Positions 1 to 20,900 of a stretch of 64,000 nt of DNA are shown here, in pieces (within the stretch, counting starts at the first letter, position 1; every line of letters begins with the position of its first letter). A program made the position numbers and the translations under genes. This DNA comes from a virus. The stretch is from the IMG/VR virus record IMGVR_UViG_3300035703_000059, positions 11,407 to 75,406 of that record, one strand, 5' to 3'. The notes below the pieces were generated by a model, which saw only the letters and a program-made list of their open reading frames with translations, ran no database searches and was not told the origin of the DNA.

Positions 1-361
1 CCCGAACTCGGCGCTCGCGGTGCGCTACACGCGCGACCACCCGACCGTCGACCTCTTTCCGTCGAACGAACTGCTGGACCGTCTCCCCGCAGAGGACTGC
101 GACGGGATGGTGGTGCGGCTCGGCGCGCTTCTGCGGGCCATTGGATTCCACGTTCGCACGCGCATTGTGGCGCCGGCCGGAAAGCCGAAACAATGGGCGC
201 ACATCTATCTGATGGTCGCGCCTGTGCCGGGTGTCGCCGACGGATGGTTGCCGCTGGACCCGACGGAGCCGGAGCGCGCGTATCGTGCGCGAAACGCGCC
301 GTTTTGGGAGCCGGGAACGGACCAGATCGATCCGCTGAAACTGGACGGGCCAATCATCTAA
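1..361 (+). CDS. Transglutaminase-like Cys-His-Asp protein (candidate virion maturation protease), 5'-truncated
   Basis: Motifs RYTRD, EDCD (Cys), WAHIY (His), WLPLDPT (Asp); frame is open to the window edge. Confidence 0.75.
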   Translation, partial: PNSALAVRYTRDHPTVDLFPSNELLDRLPAEDCDGMVVRLGALLRAIGFHVRTRIVAPAGKPKQWAHIYLMVAPVPGVADGWLPLDPTEPERAYRARNAPFWEPGTDQIDPLKLDGPII

Positions 362-704: not shown

Positions 705-1910
705 ATGTCGTGTGAGGTCGTCGCCGGAGAAGCCGCAGACGGTTCCGTCGTGTTGACGGACAATCAATGCCGCACGCTCGACATTCAGAACGTGCTGGCG
801 TTGTCCGACGGGGCCGGAAACCACGCGGCCTGCGGCTCCAAGGCGTGCGTCTACGAGACGAGCGACCCGTCCACGCTGGTCAAGGTGACGAGCGATTGGA
901 TGGACGTGTGGGCGCTGAAAAAGACGGCCGGGATGGCGGACGTCGTTCCCGTGAAGCGGATGTTCAAGCTGAAGGGGAAGCGGCGTTCGGTGAACGGAGT
1001 GGCCGAGAACGCGCTGTACGCCATCGAGGTCGCCCGCGCGCAGCCGCTATCGAAGCGCGACGAGTTGTTCCTCAACACGACGGCGTTCGACGCGATCACG
1101 CTCTACTTCGACCAGATGCTCCTCCCCGGCGTCTCGCCGAAGAGCGTCATTGATTTTCGCGAGTCGTGTCGAAAGACGGTGGATGCGGCGCGGCGCGGCG
1201 GGAAGCCGTACATGACGACGCCGCAGGCCGACCAAGCGGCGTGCGAGGCCGTGACGAGCGACGCGCTCGATGCGGTGGAGCGGATGGCGAAGCGCGGCGT
1301 CTACTTCACCGACGCCCACGCGGGAAATTGGGGCCGGTACAACGGGCGGCTGGTGGCGCTCGATCTTGGGCTTTCAGCACCGCGAGGGACACGGACCCCG
1401 AAGGTGCCAGAACTTGAAGGGATGGGCGCGATGAACGACCGGAAGATGCAAAACATGGTGCTGTTCGGCGCGGGCGCGCTGATTCTGTTCCTGCTTCTGC
1501 GGCCGAAGAAGGCCAAGGCGGAGACGTCGCTGCCCGGCAGCGGCACCGGCAGCGGGGAGTCGATCTCGTCGCTCGGCGAGCGGCCCATCGCGCTCGACCC
1601 CGCGTTCGCGAGGGCTTACGGCCCCGTCAAGGCGTACACGGTTCGCCGGGGTGACAGCCTGTCGAGGATCGCCCAGCGCGAGTTTATGACTGAGGAACTG
1701 TGGCCGTTCCTGTGGGACATCAACCGGACGGCGACGCAGTTCGCGGTTCCCGATGCGCTGGAAATCGGCCAGACCATCTACGTCCCGACGCGAGGCTCAA
1801 CGAATCGGGCATACTACACGCGGTTCGACGCGCACAAGACGTGGTACATGAGCGGCGGTCGCGGTGTTCCGCCGGAGTCTGTTTCTTCGTTCACCGTCAT
1901 CGCGCTCTGA
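705..1910 (+). CDS. Protein-kinase-like domain - TM - LysM fusion
   Basis: GSKACVY..LVKVT, DAHAGNW, ALDLG kinase-fold motifs; TM MVLFGAGALILFLLL; LysM YTVRRGDSLSRIA..LEIGQTIYVP. Confidence 0.75.
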   Translation: MSCEVVAGEAADGSVVLTDNQCRTLDIQNVLALSDGAGNHAACGSKACVYETSDPSTLVKVTSDWMDVWALKKTAGMADVVPVKRMFKLKGKRRSVNGVAENALYAIEVARAQPLSKRDELFLNTTAFDAITLYFDQMLLPGVSPKSVIDFRESCRKTVDAARRGGKPYMTTPQADQAACEAVTSDALDAVERMAKRGVYFTDAHAGNWGRYNGRLVALDLGLSAPRGTRTPKVPELEGMGAMNDRKMQNMVLFGAGALILFLLLRPKKAKAETSLPGSGTGSGESISSLGERPIALDPAFARAYGPVKAYTVRRGDSLSRIAQREFMTEELWPFLWDINRTATQFAVPDALEIGQTIYVPTRGSTNRAYYTRFDAHKTWYMSGGRGVPPESVSSFTVIAL

Positions 1911-1921
1911 GGAGTTGGCCC

Positions 1922-2578
1922 ATGTTCGCCCTTCGATATGACCGTCGCCCCGCGCGGCCGACCAACCTCGGCGAGCCGCTGACCGGCGGCACGGCGCTGT
2001 TCCTGTACCTCGGCGGGGGCGCGCTGCTCCTGTCGCTGTTTGGGCGCGGGAAGAAAAAGGCGGCCGACACGTCGACTTCTACTTCACCGTCGCCGACGTC
2101 TGATTCTGCGGCGGGGGCGATACGAGATGCGGCCAATCGGGTCGCTGACTTCACTCCTCCCCAGCTTGCGCCGTTCGTTCCGCCGGGGGGGTTTCTCATA
2201 CTGGCGCCCGACATCATCCAGTTGGCGAAGGGGTCGTTCGCGAAGCGCGTGGGCGGACGCTGGTACATCGGGGGCGAGGGCGCGGAGGAGAAGAACCCGG
2301 AGTTCACGCCGGAATGGTGGCGGAGCAACGAATCCGCAGACGTGAAGGACCGCGTCAACAGCGTGGGCTACGAGCGGTGCCGAAGCCTTCGGAACTACTC
2401 GACGAAACAGCCGAATACCAAGGCGGACTGCGCGCACCTCATCAGCGGGGAGAGCATGGAATACTGCGTGTTCAAGAAGAACGTGCGGGCGTCGGCTGAA
2501 GAACTGAACAAGAACTGCGCGGGCAAGCTGCCGAACGACATTTACATCGCACAGGACACCGGCACCTACGGGTGGTGA
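1922..2578 (+). CDS. Membrane-anchored putative virion protein
   Basis: GAGGAG RBS before ATG 1922; N-terminal TM; 4 Cys in the C-terminal part. Confidence 0.65.
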   Translation: MFALRYDRRPARPTNLGEPLTGGTALFLYLGGGALLLSLFGRGKKKAADTSTSTSPSPTSDSAAGAIRDAANRVADFTPPQLAPFVPPGGFLILAPDIIQLAKGSFAKRVGGRWYIGGEGAEEKNPEFTPEWWRSNESADVKDRVNSVGYERCRSLRNYSTKQPNTKADCAHLISGESMEYCVFKKNVRASAEELNKNCAGKLPNDIYIAQDTGTYGW

Positions 2579-8805: not shown

Positions 8806-9498
8806 ATGGCCGCATTGGCGAATGAGCGCGTCCTCATCATCGGCGACTCGATCACCGTCGGGTCGTTCGGTTCACGCTTGGAGCGGCGCTTCAAAGACGA
8901 GGGCGCGACCGTCAAGCGCGACGCGAAGAGCGGGCGCGCGACGACGTGGTTCTACGCGGACGCGGGCAAGCTGGACGCGGGCCGATTGCCCGGCCTCGCG
9001 GCGTTCAATCCGACGACGGTCATCATCGCGCTGGGGACGAACGATGCGGGGATGTTCACGACGAACGTCGAGCGCGCCAAGAGGTTCTTCGGCAAGGTGA
9101 TCGCCGACCTGCGTGACAACGCGGCGGCTCCGCCGACGTTCTGGTGGGTGACGGCGCCGGCCTTCGACTCGCGCGCGAAGAACGTGGACGCGTCGTGGAT
9201 CGACGCGCAGATTCGCGCCGTTTCGCCGCTGTTCGACAACGTCATCGACGCGCGTGCGCTGACGAGCGATATGACGGCGAAATCGGATGGGCGCACGTCC
9301 GACCTCATCCACTTCACGACGAACGGCGGCGCGCGGTACGCCGACCGCGTGTTCGATGCGTTCATGCAGAAGCGCGGAAAGACGCCCGACGTGGCGCCCC
9401 CGAAGCTGCCTTCGAAGGTCGAGCCGATGACCGTGGGTCTGTTCGTGGCGGCGGCCCTCATCGCTTACGCGGTGTGGGTGTCGCGGAGGCGCGGATGA
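8806..9498 (+). CDS. SGNH/GDSL hydrolase with C-terminal membrane anchor
   Basis: IIGDSIT, SG, ALGTND and DLIH blocks; C-terminal TM followed by RRR. Confidence 0.85.
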   Translation: MAALANERVLIIGDSITVGSFGSRLERRFKDEGATVKRDAKSGRATTWFYADAGKLDAGRLPGLAAFNPTTVIIALGTNDAGMFTTNVERAKRFFGKVIADLRDNAAAPPTFWWVTAPAFDSRAKNVDASWIDAQIRAVSPLFDNVIDARALTSDMTAKSDGRTSDLIHFTTNGGARYADRVFDAFMQKRGKTPDVAPPKLPSKVEPMTVGLFVAAALIAYAVWVSRRRG

Positions 9499-9974
9499 AG
9501 CGGGTCTGCCTGCCCGTGCGGAACAAGAAGGGCGTGTGCGCGCGTGTCGATGCCGAAACAGCCAAGTGGGCGAAGGCGATGACGTGGCACGTCCACAAGG
9601 GGTACGTCGCGACGACGCTCGGCAGCGGGAGCGAGGCGCAGCGGCTCTACCTGCATCGATTACTGGTGCCGACGGACGAGGCCGTGGTCGACCACAAGAA
9701 CGGCGACCGTCTCGATAACCGGCTCGGCAATCTGCGTCCGGCGTCCACCTCGCAGAACGGCGCGAACGTCTCGCGGCTGTCGACGAACAAGTCGGGATTC
9801 AAGGGCGTCGTGAAGCACGGTCGAAAGTTCCGCGCCTACGTTCACAAGAGCGGACGGACGCAGTACCTCGGCACGTTCGACACCGCGAAAGAGGCGGCGT
9901 GCGAGTACGACCGGAACGCAAAAAAGCTGTTTGGGCGATTCGCCAAGACGAACAAGGTCAAGTGCGGCGACTGA
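9495..9974 (+). CDS. HNH endonuclease with AP2 DNA-binding domain
   Basis: LHRL..VDHKNGDRLDNRLGNLR..SQN; NKSGFKGV..YLGTFDTAKEAACEYD. Confidence 0.9.
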   Translation: MKRVCLPVRNKKGVCARVDAETAKWAKAMTWHVHKGYVATTLGSGSEAQRLYLHRLLVPTDEAVVDHKNGDRLDNRLGNLRPASTSQNGANVSRLSTNKSGFKGVVKHGRKFRAYVHKSGRTQYLGTFDTAKEAACEYDRNAKKLFGRFAKTNKVKCGD

Positions 9975-10661: not shown

Positions 10662-10742
10662 GTCAACCCCTACACGCCCCCACATTGACTTTCGAAGATG
10701 AACTTCGAAAGGATGGGGGCAGCAGAAAGAAGGAGACACCCC

Positions 10743-11378
10743 ATGTACGACTACGGCATGAACGGTTTTGCGGGTCTGATGGACGACATCAAGTCGAGCG
10801 CCGGTGAGGCGTTCGCTGGCGGCGCCGGCCTCGTTGTCGGCGTGAGCCTTGCCAAGTTCGTCACCGCCAAGGTGGACAAGGCGGTTTCGGAGATGGAGGC
10901 GGGCGCTGGGAAGGACGCGCTCGGCTACGTCACCCCGGCCATCCCGCTGGTTCTCGGCCTTGCGCTGTACGCGAAGTTCCGCAACAGCCCGTCGCTCGCG
11001 GCTCGCAGCCTCGGCGCGGCGAACGGCGCGGGCATGATCGCCTTCTCGCTGGCGACCTACGCCAAGAAGCTGATCGGCCTGTCGAAGAGCGAGGGCGCCA
11101 CGGCGGCGGCCAGCTACATCGGCCTCGGCGCGGTGGACACCTACGAGTCCCCGATCCTCGCCGGCCTCGGCAACTACGGCCCGATCAGCGAGTACCTCCG
11201 CCCCAGCCTCGGCGCTTACGGGATGCGGTCGCCGGGCGCTCCGGTGTTCGTCGAGGACGCTGGCATGGCCGGCGCCCCGACGCAGTTCCAAGAGGTTCGT
11301 GGCAGCGTGAACGGCCTGCACGGCGCTCCGTCGTCCATCGAGATTGTTCCTTCCGCTCTTTCCTCGGTTCTGATGTAA
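10743..11378 (+). CDS. Multi-TM membrane protein preceding the capsid gene
   Basis: AAGGAG RBS; three hydrophobic helices; several xGL/xGF/xGM motifs. Confidence 0.7.
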   Translation: MYDYGMNGFAGLMDDIKSSAGEAFAGGAGLVVGVSLAKFVTAKVDKAVSEMEAGAGKDALGYVTPAIPLVLGLALYAKFRNSPSLAARSLGAANGAGMIAFSLATYAKKLIGLSKSEGATAAASYIGLGAVDTYESPILAGLGNYGPISEYLRPSLGAYGMRSPGAPVFVEDAGMAGAPTQFQEVRGSVNGLHGAPSSIEIVPSALSSVLM

Positions 11379-12793: not shown

Positions 12794-13432
12794 GTGGCGA
12801 TTCTGACTCCCGCTCCGATCAACTTTCAGCAGAAAATCCGCAGCGAACTTGCGGAGGCTCTGCGGCTGAACTTCGGCGACATCTTTCCGACCATCCTGCA
12901 CCTTCGGGTGACGCTGGGCGGGACGCTGAACCCCGGACCGCCCCCGACGGTGACGCTGCCGACCCCCGGCAACGACATCTTCCGCATCCCCGGCGACTAC
13001 TCGCTGCTCGTCGGCGAGATTCGCGGCCACATCGCGCTCAACGAACTGTCGCAGGAGTCGACGACGGCTCCGACGAACACGGGCCTTCTGAACATCGCCG
13101 GTGTGCGTAACCGCGTCGTCGCCAAGGCGCTGAACGCGCGCATGGTGCTGGTCAACGCGGACCGCGACAATCTGAAGTTCGTGGAGACGGACATCGCGAA
13201 CAGCGCGAACCCGCTGGGCATCAGCGCGAACCTCTGCCTCGCGAACCTGCTCCCGGCGGCCGGTGGCTCCCCGATCAAGCTGATCGGGGACGGCGACGTC
13301 ATGCCGCTCATCGTGCCGGGCAACGAGCGCATCAAGCTGACCGTCGCACTCAACGACGAGAACGCGTCGCTGGGCCAGACGGAGTACGGACTGACGCTGA
13401 TGGGCGCCTTCGTGCGTTCGCGGGGTAGCTGA
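12794..13432 (+). CDS. Putative third jelly-roll capsid protein
   Basis: FRIPGDYSLLV, VVAKALNARM and C-terminal TEYGLTLMGAFVR; clear paralog of 12210..12782. Confidence 0.55.
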   Translation: MAILTPAPINFQQKIRSELAEALRLNFGDIFPTILHLRVTLGGTLNPGPPPTVTLPTPGNDIFRIPGDYSLLVGEIRGHIALNELSQESTTAPTNTGLLNIAGVRNRVVAKALNARMVLVNADRDNLKFVETDIANSANPLGISANLCLANLLPAAGGSPIKLIGDGDVMPLIVPGNERIKLTVALNDENASLGQTEYGLTLMGAFVRSRGS

Positions 13433-15225
13433 TGAAAACGGTCGCCGACCAAGTGCGTGAAATCCGCGCCGCTCTCATCGCGCAGCACAAGCGCGAGGGC
13501 GTCGGCGACATCGCCTCCGCGAAGATGCAGACCGAGCGCGAACTGGCGCTCACGAAGATCTACGGGGGCGTCCCCGGCTACTACGGCCCGCCGCCGCCCT
13601 CGCGTGGTCTGAGTGCGGTGTCGAACGCGATCTGCCCGCCGGGATTCAAGCGGGACCGCGTCTCCAATCAATGCACCGTCGCCATCGAAGAGAACCCGTC
13701 GTACCTGCCGGGCATCACCGAGTTCCAAGGCCCGACGCTGATGCAGAACTCGCGCGTCGACAACTTCGTCATGCAGGCGCCGAAGTTCCGTGCGCCGACG
13801 ATGCTGTCGGGCCTCGGTGATCTGTCGACTGATGCCCCGTGGCCGGCGTATACCGCGACTGAGTTGACGTGCAACGCGTTCAGCGGAGACGATGGGTATG
13901 CGAAATGGTCGATGTCGCAAAAAGTCAACCAAGCGGTAATCAAATGGGTGGCCTACTGGAGAAATCCGAATAACACCAGCCCCTCCGGCGGCACCGTATC
14001 TTCTCTTCGCGCCGATTTGATCACGGAGAGGGATGTCACGGACGAATTCAAAAACGCGGTTCGCAAGCGAAACCCCTGTCGCCCCTCTCACATCGATGCG
14101 CTAGTCCGCGCCTTCCCGCCGGGCCGTGGGGCCGGCGTGCTGGCGTGTGAGACAACCTATGAGTGCGCCAAGTACGGCAAGGTCTGCGTGAACGGGGTGT
14201 GCGAGGGTCAGTTAGTGTTCTGCGAGAAGACTGATGACTGCCAGAAGCTCGACTTTACCTACGTCTGCTCCAACGAAATCAGCTCCGTTCGTCCCCAGCC
14301 GCACGCGATATATAGTGCGCCTTACTGCACGCCAGCCCGCGCTAACGAAGTTGCGTTGTGGTCGGCCAAGAAGCGTGCAGCGGCGGCGGCAGCAACGGCT
14401 GAAGCTCGCGCCTTGCAGCAATCCGCGAATCGCGCCCAGCAGGCCCGTCAGCGTGCCGCATCCGGTGCTTCGGCACGAACGGCGGCCATCGAGAGCGCCA
14501 TACCCAGCATTTCTGCGTCGAAGTCTGCGGGGCGCGCGCGGGCAGCCGTTGCCGCAGCGGCAGCAGCAGCGGCGGCTCGCGGCGTTGGTCCGGGGACATC
14601 GACGATGTCGCCGGCCGATGCAGCGGCTCGTCAGCGCGCGGCGGCGGCCGTAGCTGCGGCGGCGGCTGTGGCGCGAGGACGCGGCCTTACGCCGGGAGCA
14701 GGCGCGGCGGCGGCCGATATGTCGCGCGCGGGCCAGCAGGCCACCGCCGACGCGGCGGCAGCGCAGGCGGCGCGTCAATCGTCGGCCGACAAGGCGGCGT
14801 GCCGACCGGAGTGCAAGACGGGCGAGGTCGCGGAGCGCATCCCCGGCACGAAGTGCTATCGATGCGTCGTTCCGCCGCTCCCGACCGACACGAAGCCACC
14901 CGAAACCAAGGTGTGCGACCCCGGATTCGTTCTCAACGCCGACGGCGGCTGCGTTCCGGCCACGCAAATCGAGCGTCCGCCGGAGTGTCCGGCGTGTCCG
15001 AAGGTGCGATGCCCGTCGTGTCCGCCCCAGCAGTCGTGTCCGACCTGCCCGCCGTGTGACGTCACCGGCGGATACGGTGGCAGCGGCGGCGGCGGTAGCG
15101 GCGGCGGTGGGGGTGGCGGCGTCACCTACATCGACAAAGAGTGTCCGGCCTGCCTTCAGAAGAAACCGAGCATTTGGCCGTGGGTGGTCGCCGGCGTTGC
15201 GACCCTCTACGCTGTCACCCGATAA
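13432..15225 (+). CDS. Large Cys-rich/Ala-rich protein with C-terminal TM
   Basis: LSGLG motif; Cys repeats (CETTYEC..CVNGVC; CPxCP); Ala-rich helix; C-terminal TM. Confidence 0.75.
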   Translation: MKTVADQVREIRAALIAQHKREGVGDIASAKMQTERELALTKIYGGVPGYYGPPPPSRGLSAVSNAICPPGFKRDRVSNQCTVAIEENPSYLPGITEFQGPTLMQNSRVDNFVMQAPKFRAPTMLSGLGDLSTDAPWPAYTATELTCNAFSGDDGYAKWSMSQKVNQAVIKWVAYWRNPNNTSPSGGTVSSLRADLITERDVTDEFKNAVRKRNPCRPSHIDALVRAFPPGRGAGVLACETTYECAKYGKVCVNGVCEGQLVFCEKTDDCQKLDFTYVCSNEISSVRPQPHAIYSAPYCTPARANEVALWSAKKRAAAAAATAEARALQQSANRAQQARQRAASGASARTAAIESAIPSISASKSAGRARAAVAAAAAAAAARGVGPGTSTMSPADAAARQRAAAAVAAAAAVARGRGLTPGAGAAAADMSRAGQQATADAAAAQAARQSSADKAACRPECKTGEVAERIPGTKCYRCVVPPLPTDTKPPETKVCDPGFVLNADGGCVPATQIERPPECPACPKVRCPSCPPQQSCPTCPPCDVTGGYGGSGGGGSGGGGGGGVTYIDKECPACLQKKPSIWPWVVAGVATLYAVTR

Positions 15226-15236
15226 GGAGAATCGAT

Positions 15237-16544
15237 ATGGCTAACAATCGTCGAAACGTGGTCCCCAGCCAGATTGCCCCCCAGCTTATGCAGATGCGCG
15301 ATCTGTCTGCCGGCAACGACATCTACCGTCAGTCGCGCCGCGCCGTCGAGGCGATGGCCGCGCTGGAGCGTCGGCGTCAAATTCTGACGTCGAAGGGCTA
15401 CGTCTCTGAGGCGGGCCGCACGTTGCAGGGCATGGCGGATGTGTTCGCCGCCGCTCCGACGCTGCCGGAACTGGAGAACGCGATCAAGCAGCTTCTCCCC
15501 GACGGCTCCATCGTCAGCGGTCGCGAGTATTACGACCGCATCCAGAAGCAACTGAACCCGGTCTGGTACAACGGCGGCTACTCCCGCCCCTCGGACTTCA
15601 ACGAGTTCGTCAAGCAGAACCTCAAGGTGACGAACTACCCGGCCGAGTACCAGCCCTACGTCATGCCGGGCGTGCAGGCCGCGTCGTACTTCTACGTCAC
15701 GCAGCAGGCGCAGAAGGCCGGTTCGGCTCTCAGCGGCTTCAGCCCCGCTCCGCGCAGCGTCGTCGAGGGCGCGCGCATGGAGGAGCAGGCGCGCAAGAAG
15801 GCTGTGGCGCTGATGGCGCTCGCGGGCCTTGGGCGAATCGGTAAGGGCGTTGAGCGTTGCTGGGGATTCAACTGCCCCGACGAGACGGGTGACTTTGAGT
15901 TCACGGTTCCCGCGTCGATTGTGAATTCCAAGCTGACGGGCATCGATTACTTGAAGATGAACACGTCATGGATGTCGGGGACGGCGGGATGCCAGACCGA
16001 AATCACCAATAAGTCCGGCGGCAAGGTGTTCGGCCTCGCCATCGATGACGGCGACTCAAACAGCTACAACAACGCCAACGCGATCCGTCGAGTGAAGGCC
16101 GCCGCCGTCGCGCAGGCGCTCTACAAGGTGGGCGGCGAGGCGTACTTGACGCTTCCCAACCTCTACACCTATGGCGCCATGAAGGCGCATGACGTGCGAG
16201 AGCTTGAGCAGCTTATCCGCACCTATGGTACGGCAGACCGGATTGCAGCCAGCGCACAGAAACCGCCCGACACGTTGTTCGGGGACGGGTCGAGTTCTCG
16301 GTCGAGTAGCTGTAAATTCGACATGGGTAAGATGCCCTCGCTGGACGACGTGGCGAAGGTTTGGGACACCGTTTCGTCGCGGATTCCCGGCGGCGGCGGA
16401 GAGGTGACTCCTCCTCCGGGCGGCGACACGCCTCCCCCCGACGACGAGGAGAAGGGCGGGATCGATGCGCTGACGATGGTCGGCGTCGTCGGCGTCCTCG
16501 CCCTCGGCGGCATCGCGCTCTACTTCGCGCGCCAGAACCGATAG
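15237..16544 (+). CDS. C-terminally anchored virion protein
   Basis: AAGGAG RBS; LQGM, LSGF and LAGLG motifs; Pro/Gly linker and C-terminal TM. Confidence 0.75.
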   Translation: MANNRRNVVPSQIAPQLMQMRDLSAGNDIYRQSRRAVEAMAALERRRQILTSKGYVSEAGRTLQGMADVFAAAPTLPELENAIKQLLPDGSIVSGREYYDRIQKQLNPVWYNGGYSRPSDFNEFVKQNLKVTNYPAEYQPYVMPGVQAASYFYVTQQAQKAGSALSGFSPAPRSVVEGARMEEQARKKAVALMALAGLGRIGKGVERCWGFNCPDETGDFEFTVPASIVNSKLTGIDYLKMNTSWMSGTAGCQTEITNKSGGKVFGLAIDDGDSNSYNNANAIRRVKAAAVAQALYKVGGEAYLTLPNLYTYGAMKAHDVRELEQLIRTYGTADRIAASAQKPPDTLFGDGSSSRSSSCKFDMGKMPSLDDVAKVWDTVSSRIPGGGGEVTPPPGGDTPPPDDEEKGGIDALTMVGVVGVLALGGIALYFARQNR

Positions 16545-17421: not shown

Positions 17422-19521
17422 ATGGCCGACAACGAGAACACCACACCGCCGGGATTCGTCAGCACCTTTCCCGTGTTCGCTGAGTGCGATTCCATTCTGC
17501 GCGCAACGCGGGAGGGCATCGGTCTTTTGACGGGTGGGGAAGAGGGCAGGCGCCGGGTCGATGTGAAGTACCTTCGATGCCAGCTTCTCACGCAGAGCCG
17601 GACCGAACTTGGAGATCGGTCGCTGCTCCAGTTTCCGCTGTGGTGGGACTGCCGGCCGACGAGCGGCACCTTCGATCCGGGTGACGTTTTGCGGCGGGCC
17701 TACGCAAAATACACGCAGAAAGACCCCAACTCTGCGGACATCGGATTCATCGCAGGCATCCTTCGCGAGATCGACGACCTTCAAGAGGGGGGCGGCTCCA
17801 GCGAGGACCGGGCCAACTACGAGGGAAACGCGGGTTCGTACACCATCATTCAGAACCTCCTGCTGGCCCTCTCCGACTTCCCTCGGCAGGGGTCGGACGG
17901 ACGCGCGAACCTTGAGACAATCGTCGATTTGTCGCTGCGCGTGACCGACTCGATCAAAGACATCATCGTCAAAGCGTTTCCGGCGGCGGGCGGCGTCGGC
18001 GACAACGTCGTCCGCATCCTCAAGATTTTCCTCGACGGCATCTTCTACATGGGTGACGCGGTCGCCGAGGAGAAGGCGCTGCGGACCGAGATGGCCTCGC
18101 GGCTAATCTCCGACGAACGCGTGACGAACGTCGGCGGCGGCTACGAGAAGTTCTACGGCAACCGGCCATCGATGATCACGACCCGGTCGTGGTGCGCTGC
18201 CGGAAACGCTGCGCGCGACAACTACCTCGCCCCCGGAACGAACGGCGCGTACCTTCGGGCGAAGACCCGATACGATGACGCGCGGCGGTTCTTGGACACG
18301 TTCGCCGCGATGCTTGAGCGGACGCAGGGCGAGTCGACGCCGAAGACGCGCGAGCGGGTATTCGCACGATTCCAGCTAATCGGAAGCTGGATGCTGGCGT
18401 ATGCCGCCGACGAGGTATGGCTGTCGGATTACATTACCTACGACACCATCTTCGACCGCCTTCGATTGTCGGCGGCAGACGCGGTCGTGAAGGTGACGTT
18501 TGAGCCGAGGCTCATCGAGTTCAAGCGCCTCTACCCGTATTCGGCGCGGGCGGCGACTCGTCTTGAGTGCGATTACCCCGACTGCGACACGGATTTCTGG
18601 ATTCCGTTTTGGGCGGACACGAAAGCCGGAAACTGGAATCTGAAAACCGGAACTGCCGACATCGGTGTGACGGAAAAGGCGATCAGAGACGCGACGAACA
18701 TCACCTTCGACTTTTACGCCACCGCGATTCCGAAGCGAAGCGTGACCGGGCGCCGGTACAACAGCTACAAGTCGAAGTCGGTCGTGGACGTGTCGCTTAC
18801 GGTCATGCCGCTTGTGAACACGCTGTATGAGTGGGCGCGAGCCGCTGCCCCTACATGGGGGAAGATTAAGCAATACAATCTGATCCGTTACGCGCTGACC
18901 GGGTACGCGACCGGCGCCGTCAAAGACTTCGGCGAGTACGCGAAGAACCGCATCGATGTCTACGACCCGGCGTTTCGCCAGAGGTTCATCGACACCCCGC
19001 TGACGTGGCAGCAGATCGCGCTCTACATCATCGCCGGGCGCACGGACCTTGGGCCGCAGCCGAGGCCGGAAGAGTTCAACGTCGCGGCGACGCGGTGTCC
19101 CGGCGGCTCGTCGGACACGTCCTGCCTGCCCTGCGAGAAGATCAAGAATCGGCGCCCCATCGGCGCACGGGAAGTCCAAATCCCGATGCTCGTCGGCTAC
19201 ACGCCGCCTCTGGCGACGTTCGTCGGCAGCACGAACTATCGGGGTTCGGTGGAGTACGCGGCGTGGCGAAAGGCGCTCGTCGATGCGGGTTATCCGGGGT
19301 ACTACATCGACTGCATCGAACGTGACGTGACGTGGGTGTCCTCGCGGGCTGGCGAGGTGATTTCGGTTCGTCCGCCGCCGCCGCTCGTCGTCAGTCTACC
19401 GCTGGCCGCTGTGCCGAAGCCCCGCGCGGTGCGGACGTCGGACATTCCCGAACTCACCGGAATCACCCGGCCGCTCGTCGCCGAGATCGCGGGGCCGATG
19501 CTGCCTCGAAGGACTCGATAA
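17422..19521 (+). CDS. Large hypothetical protein (699 aa), putative virion/entry protein
   Basis: Long ORF in the structural operon; no family recognised. Confidence 0.7.
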   Translation: MADNENTTPPGFVSTFPVFAECDSILRATREGIGLLTGGEEGRRRVDVKYLRCQLLTQSRTELGDRSLLQFPLWWDCRPTSGTFDPGDVLRRAYAKYTQKDPNSADIGFIAGILREIDDLQEGGGSSEDRANYEGNAGSYTIIQNLLLALSDFPRQGSDGRANLETIVDLSLRVTDSIKDIIVKAFPAAGGVGDNVVRILKIFLDGIFYMGDAVAEEKALRTEMASRLISDERVTNVGGGYEKFYGNRPSMITTRSWCAAGNAARDNYLAPGTNGAYLRAKTRYDDARRFLDTFAAMLERTQGESTPKTRERVFARFQLIGSWMLAYAADEVWLSDYITYDTIFDRLRLSAADAVVKVTFEPRLIEFKRLYPYSARAATRLECDYPDCDTDFWIPFWADTKAGNWNLKTGTADIGVTEKAIRDATNITFDFYATAIPKRSVTGRRYNSYKSKSVVDVSLTVMPLVNTLYEWARAAAPTWGKIKQYNLIRYALTGYATGAVKDFGEYAKNRIDVYDPAFRQRFIDTPLTWQQIALYIIAGRTDLGPQPRPEEFNVAATRCPGGSSDTSCLPCEKIKNRRPIGAREVQIPMLVGYTPPLATFVGSTNYRGSVEYAAWRKALVDAGYPGYYIDCIERDVTWVSSRAGEVISVRPPPPLVVSLPLAAVPKPRAVRTSDIPELTGITRPLVAEIAGPMLPRRTR

Positions 19522-20325
19522 ATGGACACCCCCATCTACAAGCGCGCATGGTTCTGGGTCGTCGTCGGTGGGGCGATTCTCCTCGCCATCCGCCGCAAGC
19601 AGGTCGAACTGACCCCTCCGCCGAAGCTGCCGGGGCCGGAGGTCGCGCCTCCGTCGGGGTCGGCGTCGATTGACCCGTTCCGCACGACGAACCTGTCGGC
19701 CGAGCAGGAGCGCGCGTTCATCGCCGCCCTGCCGAGAGCCGGCCAGCAGTACGGCGCGCTGTTCGCACAGGCGGGTCGCGAGAAGGGCATCTCGCCGCTC
19801 TTGCTCGCGGCCATCTGCGAGACGGAGACGTACTACGGCGAGGCGGCGGCGTGCAAAGGCAAGGGTCCGGCCTGCGAGGGAACGCTCGCCGACGACTTCG
19901 GCCTCATGCAGATCAACAGCAAGGCGCACCCGGAGTTCTTCAAGCGAAGCGTCAACGGCACGCCCGCGTGGAAGGTGCCGCTGGAAAACATCCGCTACGG
20001 TGCCGAGGTCTGGAACTCGTCGCTCGCATCGATGCGCGGGCGTCCGAACTCCAGCGGCAAGGTCGACGTCGGCGCGCGGCGAGCCGCGCAGCTTCTCGTC
20101 AAGCCGGGCAAGTACCCCGACCCGCGTCCGATGGACATCGATCTCGCACGCTGGGCCGCGACTTCGGGCTACAATGCAGGACCGATGGCGGCAATCATCG
20201 CGGTGGCGGCGGACAGGTCGCCGGACGCCGTGACGCACGGCAGCAAGTACGGCAAGACGGTTCTGGACAAGCTGGGGAGAATCTTCAACAAGACGGTCGA
20301 GAACTTGAACCGGGGAGCACAATGA
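19522..20325 (+). CDS. Membrane-anchored lytic transglycosylase (SLT family)
   Basis: N-terminal TM; AAICETET (catalytic E), GLMQIN, GYNAG. Confidence 0.85.
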   Translation: MDTPIYKRAWFWVVVGGAILLAIRRKQVELTPPPKLPGPEVAPPSGSASIDPFRTTNLSAEQERAFIAALPRAGQQYGALFAQAGREKGISPLLLAAICETETYYGEAAACKGKGPACEGTLADDFGLMQINSKAHPEFFKRSVNGTPAWKVPLENIRYGAEVWNSSLASMRGRPNSSGKVDVGARRAAQLLVKPGKYPDPRPMDIDLARWAATSGYNAGPMAAIIAVAADRSPDAVTHGSKYGKTVLDKLGRIFNKTVENLNRGAQ

Positions 20326-20528: not shown

Positions 20529-20900
20529 ATGGCCGATATGATTGCGATGCTGAACGGGCTGGGCGCCTACGGCGAGTTTCCGATTGGGGACGTCGATCCG
20601 GCGACGAGCGCGCGCATCGGCCAGACCTCGCCGGGGACGGGCCTGTCGAACGAGCAGATCACCGTCTACAACCCGCAGCCGTACACGCTGGGGAAGATCG
20701 ACGACGAGGAAGAGGGTCTGAGCGGGACGACGTGGCTGTTCATCGTGCTGGGCCTCGGCGCTGCGGCGTGGGGCATCTCCAAGATGGTCAAGTCTGCGTC
20801 GCCGGAGCCGGGCGAGGACTTCCTCGACGGCATCGCCGAGCCGGAGATGATCGAACTCAACGCGCCCCCCGCACGCACGCGGGGCAAGGGGAAGCGATGA
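20529..20900 (+). CDS. Single-TM protein
   Basis: ATCGATG start; MLNGLGA motif; central TM. Confidence 0.7.
   Translation: MADMIAMLNGLGAYGEFPIGDVDPATSARIGQTSPGTGLSNEQITVYNPQPYTLGKIDDEEEGLSGTTWLFIVLGLGAAAWGISKMVKSASPEPGEDFLDGIAEPEMIELNAPPARTRGKGKR

Follow-up and report, generated by a model that had tools for sequence, protein, structure and literature searches.

The open reading frame (ORF) at positions 705..1910 of a stretch of viral DNA from IMG/VR record IMGVR_UViG_3300035703_000059 raises the question of what a virus of bacteria might gain from a single polypeptide that carries kinase motifs, a transmembrane (TM) segment and a LysM domain. The stretch, referred to here as the window, is 64,000 nucleotides long and corresponds to bases 11407-75406 of the record, which is complete at 75,406 bp, has direct terminal repeats and represents the genome of an uncultured bacterial virus of ~75 kb. 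A protein identical to the ORF product (the query in what follows) is already on record, carrying PF01476. A sequence-only reading of the window had proposed that the ORF encodes either a peptidoglycan-sensing viral kinase or a polyprotein whose kinase is cut off at the motif LEGMG, and the features on which it relied (VKVT, DAHAGN, LDLG, LEGMG, TM and LysM) all lie where it had placed them. The interpretation favored here, which is held with a little more belief than doubt, is that the protein is a T7K-like kinase directed to the host envelope, in which the TM-LysM part acts as an anchor or localizer and not as a ligand-gated sensor.

A Minimal Kinase Domain

Relatives of the N-terminal domain were collected by an exhaustive HMMER search with residues 1-240 against 1.84 billion cluster representatives, which returned 146 relatives with E values up to 1e-3, of which 21 had values of at most 1e-10 (P-numbers denote relatives and L-numbers metagenome or virus contigs). 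All conservation figures refer to an alignment of 135 of the 146. D203 is invariant, and conservation reaches at least 90% at Q21, G44, K60, T62, D64, D67, C155, G198, H205, N208, G210, G214, D220, G222 and L237. The conserved positions are those expected of a kinase, namely a glycine-rich loop, the β3 lysine, a catalytic aspartate with an asparagine at +5 and a metal-binding aspartate (Table 1). When the family profile was compared with PDB sequences, solved protein kinases were matched from E 3.5e-7, with DxHxGN aligned to the catalytic loop and LDLG to the DFG motif.

The AlphaFold2 (AF2) model built with a multiple sequence alignment has a mean predicted local distance difference test (pLDDT) score of 86.9, with both domains above 90, and was used in preference to a single-sequence model (pLDDT 38), which was set aside. 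The modeled kinase domain contains an N-lobe, three helices, the catalytic loop and the DFG-like motif. With an E threshold of 1e-3, Foldseek matched 72 PDB chains, all of them protein kinases or aminoglycoside phosphotransferases, and VIA-align placed the domain on PKR with Z 11.6 [root-mean-square deviation (rmsd) 3.2 Å, 150 residues] and gave Z 8 or higher with 90 chains. When 48,161 representative chains were searched independently of Foldseek, the top 50 consisted entirely of kinases (Z 7.6-9.5), including Rio2, an archaeal minimal kinase, PknB and YabT. Profile, AF2, Foldseek and VIA therefore agree on an N-terminal kinase fold, whose absence would have undone the sequence-only reading.

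The bilobal fold, in combination with the β3 lysine, the catalytic aspartate and its +5 asparagine, and the metal-binding aspartate, places the domain in the protein kinase-like superfamily. Only ~17 residues separate D220 from L237, so that the activation segment and helices F-I are absent and the kinase is a minimal one; structural alignments end at about DFG+10 to +20. The domain is thus not a canonical Hanks-type kinase, which would have a full catalytic domain with activation segment, APE motif and helices F-I and would pass the gathering score of Pkinase (PF00069). Weak Pfam matches are distributed over the 135 members as follows: ABC1 in 30, Pkinase in 21, APH in 3 and Kdo in 1. The idea of a pseudokinase was rejected, as all catalytic residues are conserved. 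Four cysteines (C43, C48, C155 and C180) are invariant in the seven closest relatives, as are C22 and C180 in the fused set; unusual for a cytoplasmic kinase, these residues could form a metal site or disulfides.

Comparison of the family profile with T7 gp0.7 (T7K; Pfam family PF27024) by hhalign gave a probability of 95.8% and E 6.5e-9, over 65 N-lobe columns only, while the alignment of the catalytic loop by itself was not significant (E 0.25). Read directly, the catalytic loop is DMHSGN in T7 gp0.7 and DAHAGN in the query, and the metal-binding Asp, part of DPV in the former and of DLG in the latter, lies 12 residues further on in both. Neighbors in BFVD are phage proteins, including entries named as T7-type ‘protein kinase,’ and the ESM Atlas provided the same leads. 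On the strength of sequence and model, the N-terminal ~240 residues are a predicted minimal kinase of the T7 gp0.7 type, presumably active, and the family is best described as a distant sister group of T7K, not as part of the T7K family. Most of its members are labeled Uroviricota (tailed phages).

Several other searches were made. A word-based homologue search with the query found only the query itself, and residues 243-401 alone found none. The query, P0002 and P0022, compared with GenBank phages by tblastn, gave at most a LysM match in an Enterococcus phage baseplate protein. Scans of IMG/VR with the single query protein and with a further query (A3) returned none, scans of genome contigs with two other queries (A2 and A4) revealed neither a prophage copy nor a hint of the host, and P0147 and P0148 gave nothing useful against Pfam.

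The Fusion Junction and the TM-LysM Module

An artefact of sequencing, which the sequence-only reading had named as a way in which the fusion might prove false, or of assembly is ruled out by an independent contig that bridges the junction and by recurrence of the architecture in distant relatives. In the probable source run, a 74.6-kb contig crosses the region at depth 18 with zero differences at the junction. A 270-base contig from an unrelated study covers window positions 1257-1526 with 3 differences and spans the catalytic loop, LEGMG, the TM segment and the AKA site, and near-identical pieces are present in freshwater and drinking-water runs. Subsurface habitats are also among those in which the sequence occurs. 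The kinase-TM-LysM order is also found in P0002, P0022, P0062, P0082, P0095, P0101, P0146 and locus L005, and these fused relatives are 27-47% identical to the query. A separate observation concerns the ORF L006:427-1206, which is 91% identical to P0095 residues 205-404 (kinase end, TM and LysM) while the first 200 kinase residues are replaced by unrelated sequence; this is a fusion that has decayed or else an assembly chimera.

The kinase domain closes with the LxG boundary motif, located ~17 residues past the DFG-like Asp, in which the Leu is present in 122/135 members and the Gly at +2 in 106/135. L237 is packed on the kinase domain in the model (pLDDT ~87), with a β-bridge at residues 236-237, and because this packing is confident, a structural role is the simpler reading of LxG conservation.

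Assignment of the LysM domain relies on a PF01476 match that exceeds the model cut-off (E 9.6e-6; 25.9 bits vs. 20.9), on a match to the LysM part of the endolysin PHROG phrog_380 (E 7.8e-7) and on the modeled strand 308-312, helices 319-327 and 330-340, and strand 357-361, all at pLDDT >90. Residues S318, I322, A323, W333, P334, L336, W337, D338, N340 and R341 are invariant in the TM-LysM module, which also has a conserved PKKAKA stretch past the TM segment. The module is predicted to bind peptidoglycan. Two other interpretations of the region were rejected. A sortase- or exosortase-type sorting signal does not fit the 136 residues that still follow the TM segment, and a twin-arginine translocation signal does not fit the stand-alone TM-LysM proteins, which have KK and not RR ahead of the hydrophobic run.

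Exchangeable C-Termini and Conserved Gene Order

What follows the boundary motif differs among relatives. Most members have a median of ~13 more residues, forming a tail that is 44% Lys/Arg; five (P0008, P0009, P0012, P0026 and P0029) have a C-terminal TM segment only; and at least eight, the query and the seven P-numbered relatives named above, have TM-LysM, as does L005. The tree of kinase domains is poorly resolved and pairs the query with P0002 inside a stand-alone clade, at a distance from the remaining fused members; that the fusion arose only once may be compatible with such a tree. Giant relatives of 1100-2300 residues with 3-6 matched kinase stretches were also observed, and a low-GC viral contig encodes a 2255-residue protein (L003:5109-11876) with three kinase copies [family hidden Markov model (HMM) E 1.8e-70] and other domains.

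Gene order provides a second view of the same exchange. A transglutaminase-like gene, a variable slot, a 147-residue gene and a ~420-residue gene follow one another in conserved order. In L005, the slot is occupied by a fused gene. In L011, a 43-kb IMG/VR contig, the slot begins with a pair of stand-alone, polybasic-tailed kinases, continues with a small TM protein and closes with TM-LysM as a gene of its own. In L007, it contains a non-kinase protein of 248 residues ending in ‘...VLAGRPKSRRMASRRRSR’, followed by a small TM protein and by TM-LysM encoded on its own; no kinase is present on the whole 7-kb contig. The stand-alone TM-LysM proteins begin at the equivalent of query M243. Whether the two halves are separate genes in relatives, a check proposed with the sequence-only reading, can thus be answered affirmatively: kinase and TM-LysM are separate in L011, and in L007 TM-LysM occurs without a kinase. 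The fusion unites two proteins that elsewhere accompany each other.

The LxG motif with an Arg-rich tail is also found on non-kinase ORFs (L007:2744-3490, L007:402-1289 and L006:69-596). The tails can be compared directly, a non-kinase example ending in ‘...VLAGRPKSRRMASRRRSR’ and the kinases P0072 and P0142 in ‘RRMASRRR...’. This combination looks like a portable C-terminal module.

A Proposed Envelope-Directed Kinase and Its Alternatives

In the mechanism proposed for an envelope-directed kinase, the query, a predicted single-pass membrane protein, would have its kinase at the host inner membrane, on the side facing the cytoplasm, a location chosen because the protein has no signal peptide and the kinase would need ATP. 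The LysM domain would lie on the opposite side of the membrane, bound to peptidoglycan. The part that follows hydrophobic-P-x-L-x-G would serve as an exchangeable address, in the form of a polybasic tail, a bare TM segment or TM-LysM. TM-LysM would fix the kinase at the envelope much as the basic tails, or the DNA-binding domain of T7K, would fix it on nucleic acid. Because C-termini are swapped freely among relatives, TM-LysM resembles an address or anchor more than a signaling input. Once in place, the kinase might phosphorylate envelope-proximal host or viral proteins in the course of host take-over, counter-defence or envelope remodeling, although these targets are speculative.

Several observations weigh against this mechanism. 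By itself, the query has no kinase match in Pfam, NCBIfam or PDB sequences, and no Pkinase match at E 1 or better. Its DxHxGN loop resembles that of the ABC1/UbiB atypical kinases, to which the 30 weak ABC1 matches also point, and a non-protein substrate is therefore possible. The flank past the TM segment is consistently basic (RPKKAKAE) and carries more positive charge than the preceding flank in the query, L005 and L007, contrary to the positive-inside rule for a protein with its N-terminus inside and C-terminus outside. The A-x-A sequence, the LxG motif and an internal Shine-Dalgarno (SD)-like site hint that other products may exist beside the full-length protein or be made from it. The gene lies in a putative morphogenesis arm of late appearance and not in an early region, whereas T7 gp0.7 is early. 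Finally, none of the runs found to contain the stretch was an RNA run.

A first alternative is that the ORF gives rise to two proteins instead of one bitopic kinase, which we regard as possible but on balance doubtful. Three routes can be envisaged. In the first, host signal peptidase I would cut past A-K-A (residues 270-272), so that the kinase would stay tail-anchored and the LysM protein would be set free in the periplasm. The query sequence L-L-L-R-P-K-K-A-K-A, with the cut before E, can be compared with the substrate pattern of this enzyme, a hydrophobic core with a helix breaker near -6 and small residues at -3 and -1, and its c-region is unusually basic, the lysines being uncommon in Sec signal peptides. 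A-x-A after the hydrophobic run, with Pro at -6, was found by script in 9/11 homologues and by eye in a tenth (P0062, ASA), and it is kept while its surroundings vary (AKA, ARA, ASA and AQA). Shuffled linkers contain 2.6 such sites, and 9 were reached in 1/2000 shuffles, a statistic that overstates independence because the homologues are related. Products of this kind have natural counterparts in P0008, P0009, P0012 and P0029, which end just past the TM segment.

In the second route, which the sequence-only reading had anticipated, a viral protease would cut between LEGM and G and release a soluble kinase. The family-wide occurrence of LxG and the presence of the motif with a polybasic tail on non-kinase ORFs are in keeping with such a site, and LxG[LM]G is found 4 times in the genome against 1.0 expected (reached in 4/300 shuffles) and LxGxG 19 times against 10.1, a modest enrichment. 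The candidate protease is the membrane-bound Cys-His-Asp enzyme encoded upstream of the kinase gene and syntenic in L005, L007 and L011. The adenovirus protease has the consensus (M/I/L)XGX-G, which is matched by the P4 Leu and P2 Gly of LEGMG. However, L237 is packed in the model and most members simply end past the motif, so that a structural role explains its conservation; the neighboring enzyme is transglutaminase-like, its role as a protease is putative and it matches no solved structure by sequence; and no adenain-like (clan-CE) enzyme was identified in the genome.

In the third route, also foreseen in the sequence-only reading, an internal start at M243 would add a separate TM-LysM pre-protein. 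GAAGGG lies 9 nt upstream of M243; its duplex energy of -8.0 kcal/mol compares with a median of -6.35 for called starts and ranks M243 among the best 7% of internal ATGs, and stand-alone TM-LysM genes start at the equivalent residue. Against this, an SD sequence of such quality precedes 7% of internal ATGs, and the SD-like bases are dictated by the Glu-Gly codons of the motif.

A second alternative, which we consider improbable, is that the protein is a virion component or pre-made effector, located in the internal membrane of a tailless, membrane-containing virion and brought into the next host along with the genome, so that the kinase acts before viral expression and LysM engages the wall at entry. 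The co-oriented arm with fibre-like proteins, SLT, VanY and many TM proteins, and with no recognizable terminase, portal or HK97 capsid gene, is compatible with such a virion, as is the portability of the LxG and basic-tail module among proteins of related contigs. As a lead only, the Atlas places the TM-LysM half next to a cluster of viruses (score 0.89) in which Preplasmiviricota is the most frequent phylum. Yet a kinase that is cytoplasmic in the host would face the capsid and LysM the lumen, the wrong orientation for binding the wall at entry, and the labels of the kinase family are mostly those of tailed phages.

It is distinctly improbable that the domain is a small-molecule, lipid or sugar kinase that acts on a membrane-bound envelope precursor, as Kdo kinase and WaaP do, or in a UbiB/ABC1-like manner. 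Evidence in this direction comes from the weak ABC1, APH and Kdo matches listed above, from Foldseek matches to aminoglycoside phosphotransferases (E ~1e-4), from an Atlas structural neighbor with Kdo in 81% of its members, and from the anchor, which would put the active site at the lipid surface. It is opposed by the top structural matches by Z, which are protein kinases, by the nearest characterized sequence relative, T7K, which is a protein kinase with DxHxGN (PMC13645617), and by the lack in the model of a C-terminal helical substrate-binding subdomain of the APH/ChoK type.

The receptor proposed in the sequence-only reading, in which LysM senses peptidoglycan or muropeptides outside the cell and turns on a cytoplasmic kinase as in PknB or plant receptors, appears very unlikely. 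Its premise holds insofar as the order kinase-TM-LysM is real and provides an analogous kinase, one TM segment and a wall-glycan-binding domain, with PknB and YabT among the structural matches (Z 7.7). The sensing function does not follow. The usual switch is absent, as the domain has no activation segment and nothing past DFG+20; relatives whose C-terminus is just a basic tail or a TM segment, and the separate genes of L011, show the C-terminal part to be swappable; and the query has a single LysM and no PASTA domain, in an order that is the reverse of plant LysM receptor-like kinases (LysM-RLKs). Equally hard to credit is a combined scheme in which LxGx marks proteins of a tailless, membrane-containing virus for maturation cleavage and packaging. 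The kinase would then be packaged via its tail or anchor, freed by a viral cysteine enzyme, for which the upstream Cys-His-Asp protein is the candidate, and delivered to the next host as a T7K-like effector.

Genomic Setting

The kinase gene has an ATG start with an SD-like site upstream. It begins 4 nt past the stop of the preceding small gene, and the next gene begins 12 nt beyond its own stop, short gaps that place it within a co-oriented, operon-like run (Table 1). The downstream 218-residue protein has no match in a Pfam scan.

Table 1. Features of the kinase-TM-LysM gene and its neighbors (window coordinates; aa, amino acids).
Feature	Residues	Position	Strand	Basis or remark
Syntenic upstream gene, 3' part; transglutaminase-like, membrane-anchored Cys-His-Asp enzyme		2..361	+	Weak Transglut_core match
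TM and coiled-coil protein	106 aa	381..701	+	Open frame; homologue elsewhere in L011
Whole ORF, kinase-TM-LysM fusion	401 aa	705..1910	+	Open frame
Minimal protein-kinase-like domain (predicted)	1-241	705..1427	+	Profile, AF2, Foldseek, VIA, hhalign
Gly-rich-loop equivalent ACGSKACVY	42-50	828..854	+	G44 at least 90% conserved; aligns to T7K GNGHFSAAY
β3 lysine K60, in VKVT (59-62)	60	882..884	+	At least 90% conserved (n = 135); aligns to T7K VIK lysine
Catalytic loop DAHAGN	203-208	1311..1328	+	D203 invariant; H205 and N208 at least 90%; aligned to HRDLKPEN loop of solved kinases
DFG-like DLG, in LDLG (219-222)	220-222	1362..1370	+	12 residues past N208; D220 and G222 at least 90%; aligned to DFG
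End-of-domain motif VPELEGMG (LEGMG 237-241)	234-241	1404..1427	+	Family-wide hydrophobic-P-x-L-x-G-x-[G/R]; C-terminal modules change here
SD-like GAAGGG (1416-1421) and internal ATG of M243 (1431-1433)	243	1416..1433	+	Possible start, 159-aa TM-LysM product
Hydrophobic TM segment	251-265	1455..1499	+	Hydropathy; model helix 246-264
Basic RPKKAKA, signal-peptidase-I-like, predicted cut past A272	266-272	1500..1520	+	Pro at -6, A-x-A; PKKAKA conserved
LysM, β-α-α-β	311-361	1635..1787	+	Pfam PF01476, phrog_380, model
C-terminal helix past LysM	368-382	1806..1850	+	Model; R373 invariant in fused set
Protein with basic N-terminus, NLG, TM and basic flank	218 aa	1922..2578	+	Open frame
Syntenic downstream gene	147 aa	2572..3015	+	tblastn to L005, L006, L007 and L011, 41-47% identity

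The upstream Cys-His-Asp enzyme, of which the window holds the 3' part, is 257 residues long and starts at genome position 10994 (L004:10994-11764). Its residues C171, H205 and D224 are invariant in 21 homologues, with the spacing of a transglutaminase core. It has 66 homologues, 43-64% identical and found exclusively in metagenomes, and it always adjoins the kinase/TM-LysM slot on the 5' side, with synteny in L005, L007 and L011. Comparison of its profile with PDB sequences gave no match.

The same strand encodes further envelope-directed genes, which together with the transglutaminase-like enzyme include a VanY and PG_binding_1 endolysin (L004:2527-3243), an SLT lytic transglycosylase (window 19522-20325) and a GDSL-type esterase (window 8806-9498). 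Fibre-like proteins and many TM proteins are also encoded in the arm around the kinase gene, and no recognizable tailed-phage morphogenesis gene (terminase, portal or HK97 capsid) was present among the arm proteins that were scanned. The large ORFs at window positions 13432-15225, 15141-16544 and 17422-19521 have no match in Pfam or PHROG. Three further LxGLG sites occur in plus-strand proteins of the window, as LAGLG, LAGLG and LNGLG (10698-11378, 15141-16544 and 20529-20900, respectively).

A recurrent layout, composed of a basic run, [NRH]-L-G, ~10 residues, a hydrophobic helix and a basic flank, is found at the N-termini of small membrane proteins (window 1922-2578; L007:3530-4075; L011 ~9330-9817) and in the linkers of the fused kinases P0082, P0095, P0101 and L005. 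It may be a shared membrane-targeting signal.

Comparison with Known Systems

A literature search for phage kinase-LysM proteins returned only papers on plant receptors, and in the literature searched and to our knowledge the kinase-TM-LysM architecture is unreported for phage kinases. The work adds a large, uncharacterized sister family of T7K (146 clusters at 50% identity) that has the same catalytic loop and appears to follow a simple rule, one kinase core with interchangeable C-terminal addresses. The syntenic viruses in which the two parts are fused or separate provide a ‘Rosetta stone’ link for a pair of viral genes that have no other annotation. Should the kinase be active, phage kinases could target the envelope, e.g., membrane-bound defence, wall synthesis or the division machinery, and the protein could provide a compact tool for envelope-localized phosphorylation.

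Likenesses to known proteins are found for each half of the query. Its LysM domain shares with YgaU/Kbp-type proteins a long second helix (‘LWPFLWDxNR’) and a weak match to NF008399 (PRK11198), and the LysM of relative P0146 matches Phage_tail_X. These scores are far below the model cut-offs, the query has no BON domain, and its LysM is preceded by a TM segment and PKKAKA. On the kinase side, Rio2 (Z 8.2), the archaeal TkArkI (Z 8.2) and the ABC1/UbiB proteins likewise have a small kinase fold that lacks a canonical activation segment, and ABC1 kinases share the D-x-H-x-G-N loop pattern. They differ from the query in having no significant sequence match to it and other helical inserts, and none has TM-LysM.

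The plant LysM receptor-like kinases (CERK1 and NFR1/5) unite LysM, TM and kinase in one chain, in which LysM binds a GlcNAc-containing glycan (PMC6207691). They have three N-terminal LysMs and a C-terminal full kinase of the RD or non-RD type, whereas the query is reversed and has a single LysM. Their topology is that of the eukaryotic secretory route, and homology with the query is limited to the domain superfamilies. PknB is closer in layout, with an N-terminal kinase, a single TM segment and a C-terminal peptidoglycan-binding module, and its kinase domain matches that of the query in structure (Z 7.7, rmsd 3.6 Å, 143 residues). In contrast to PknB, the query has no PASTA domain (Pfam, E 1 or better), no activation loop or region past DFG, and is viral, with a C-terminal module that is dispensable or exchangeable among its relatives.

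The most informative comparison is with T7K, a hyper-promiscuous dual-specificity kinase that disarms many bacterial defences (PMC13645617). Its C-terminal domain binds DNA and biases the kinase toward nucleic-acid-binding proteins, and its homologues are almost exclusively viral, carry DPV and have no alternative domains that were found (PMC13645617). Both T7K and the query are phage minimal kinases of ~240 residues by prediction, with a DxHxGN loop and an end ~20-27 residues past the metal-binding Asp, followed by a non-catalytic C-terminal part that is basic (Arg/Lys-rich) in T7K and takes the form of a polybasic tail in the majority of the query's relatives. They differ in that the query family has DLG (G222 at least 90% conserved) where T7K homologues have DPV, in that the query has TM-LysM in place of the shut-off/DNA-binding domain and matches no PHROG kinase family, and in that its virus is 75 kb and not T7-like. 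The query would thus represent a natural case in which the address is membrane and cell wall instead of DNA, and, with its function a matter of inference, it extends the T7K story in a testable direction.

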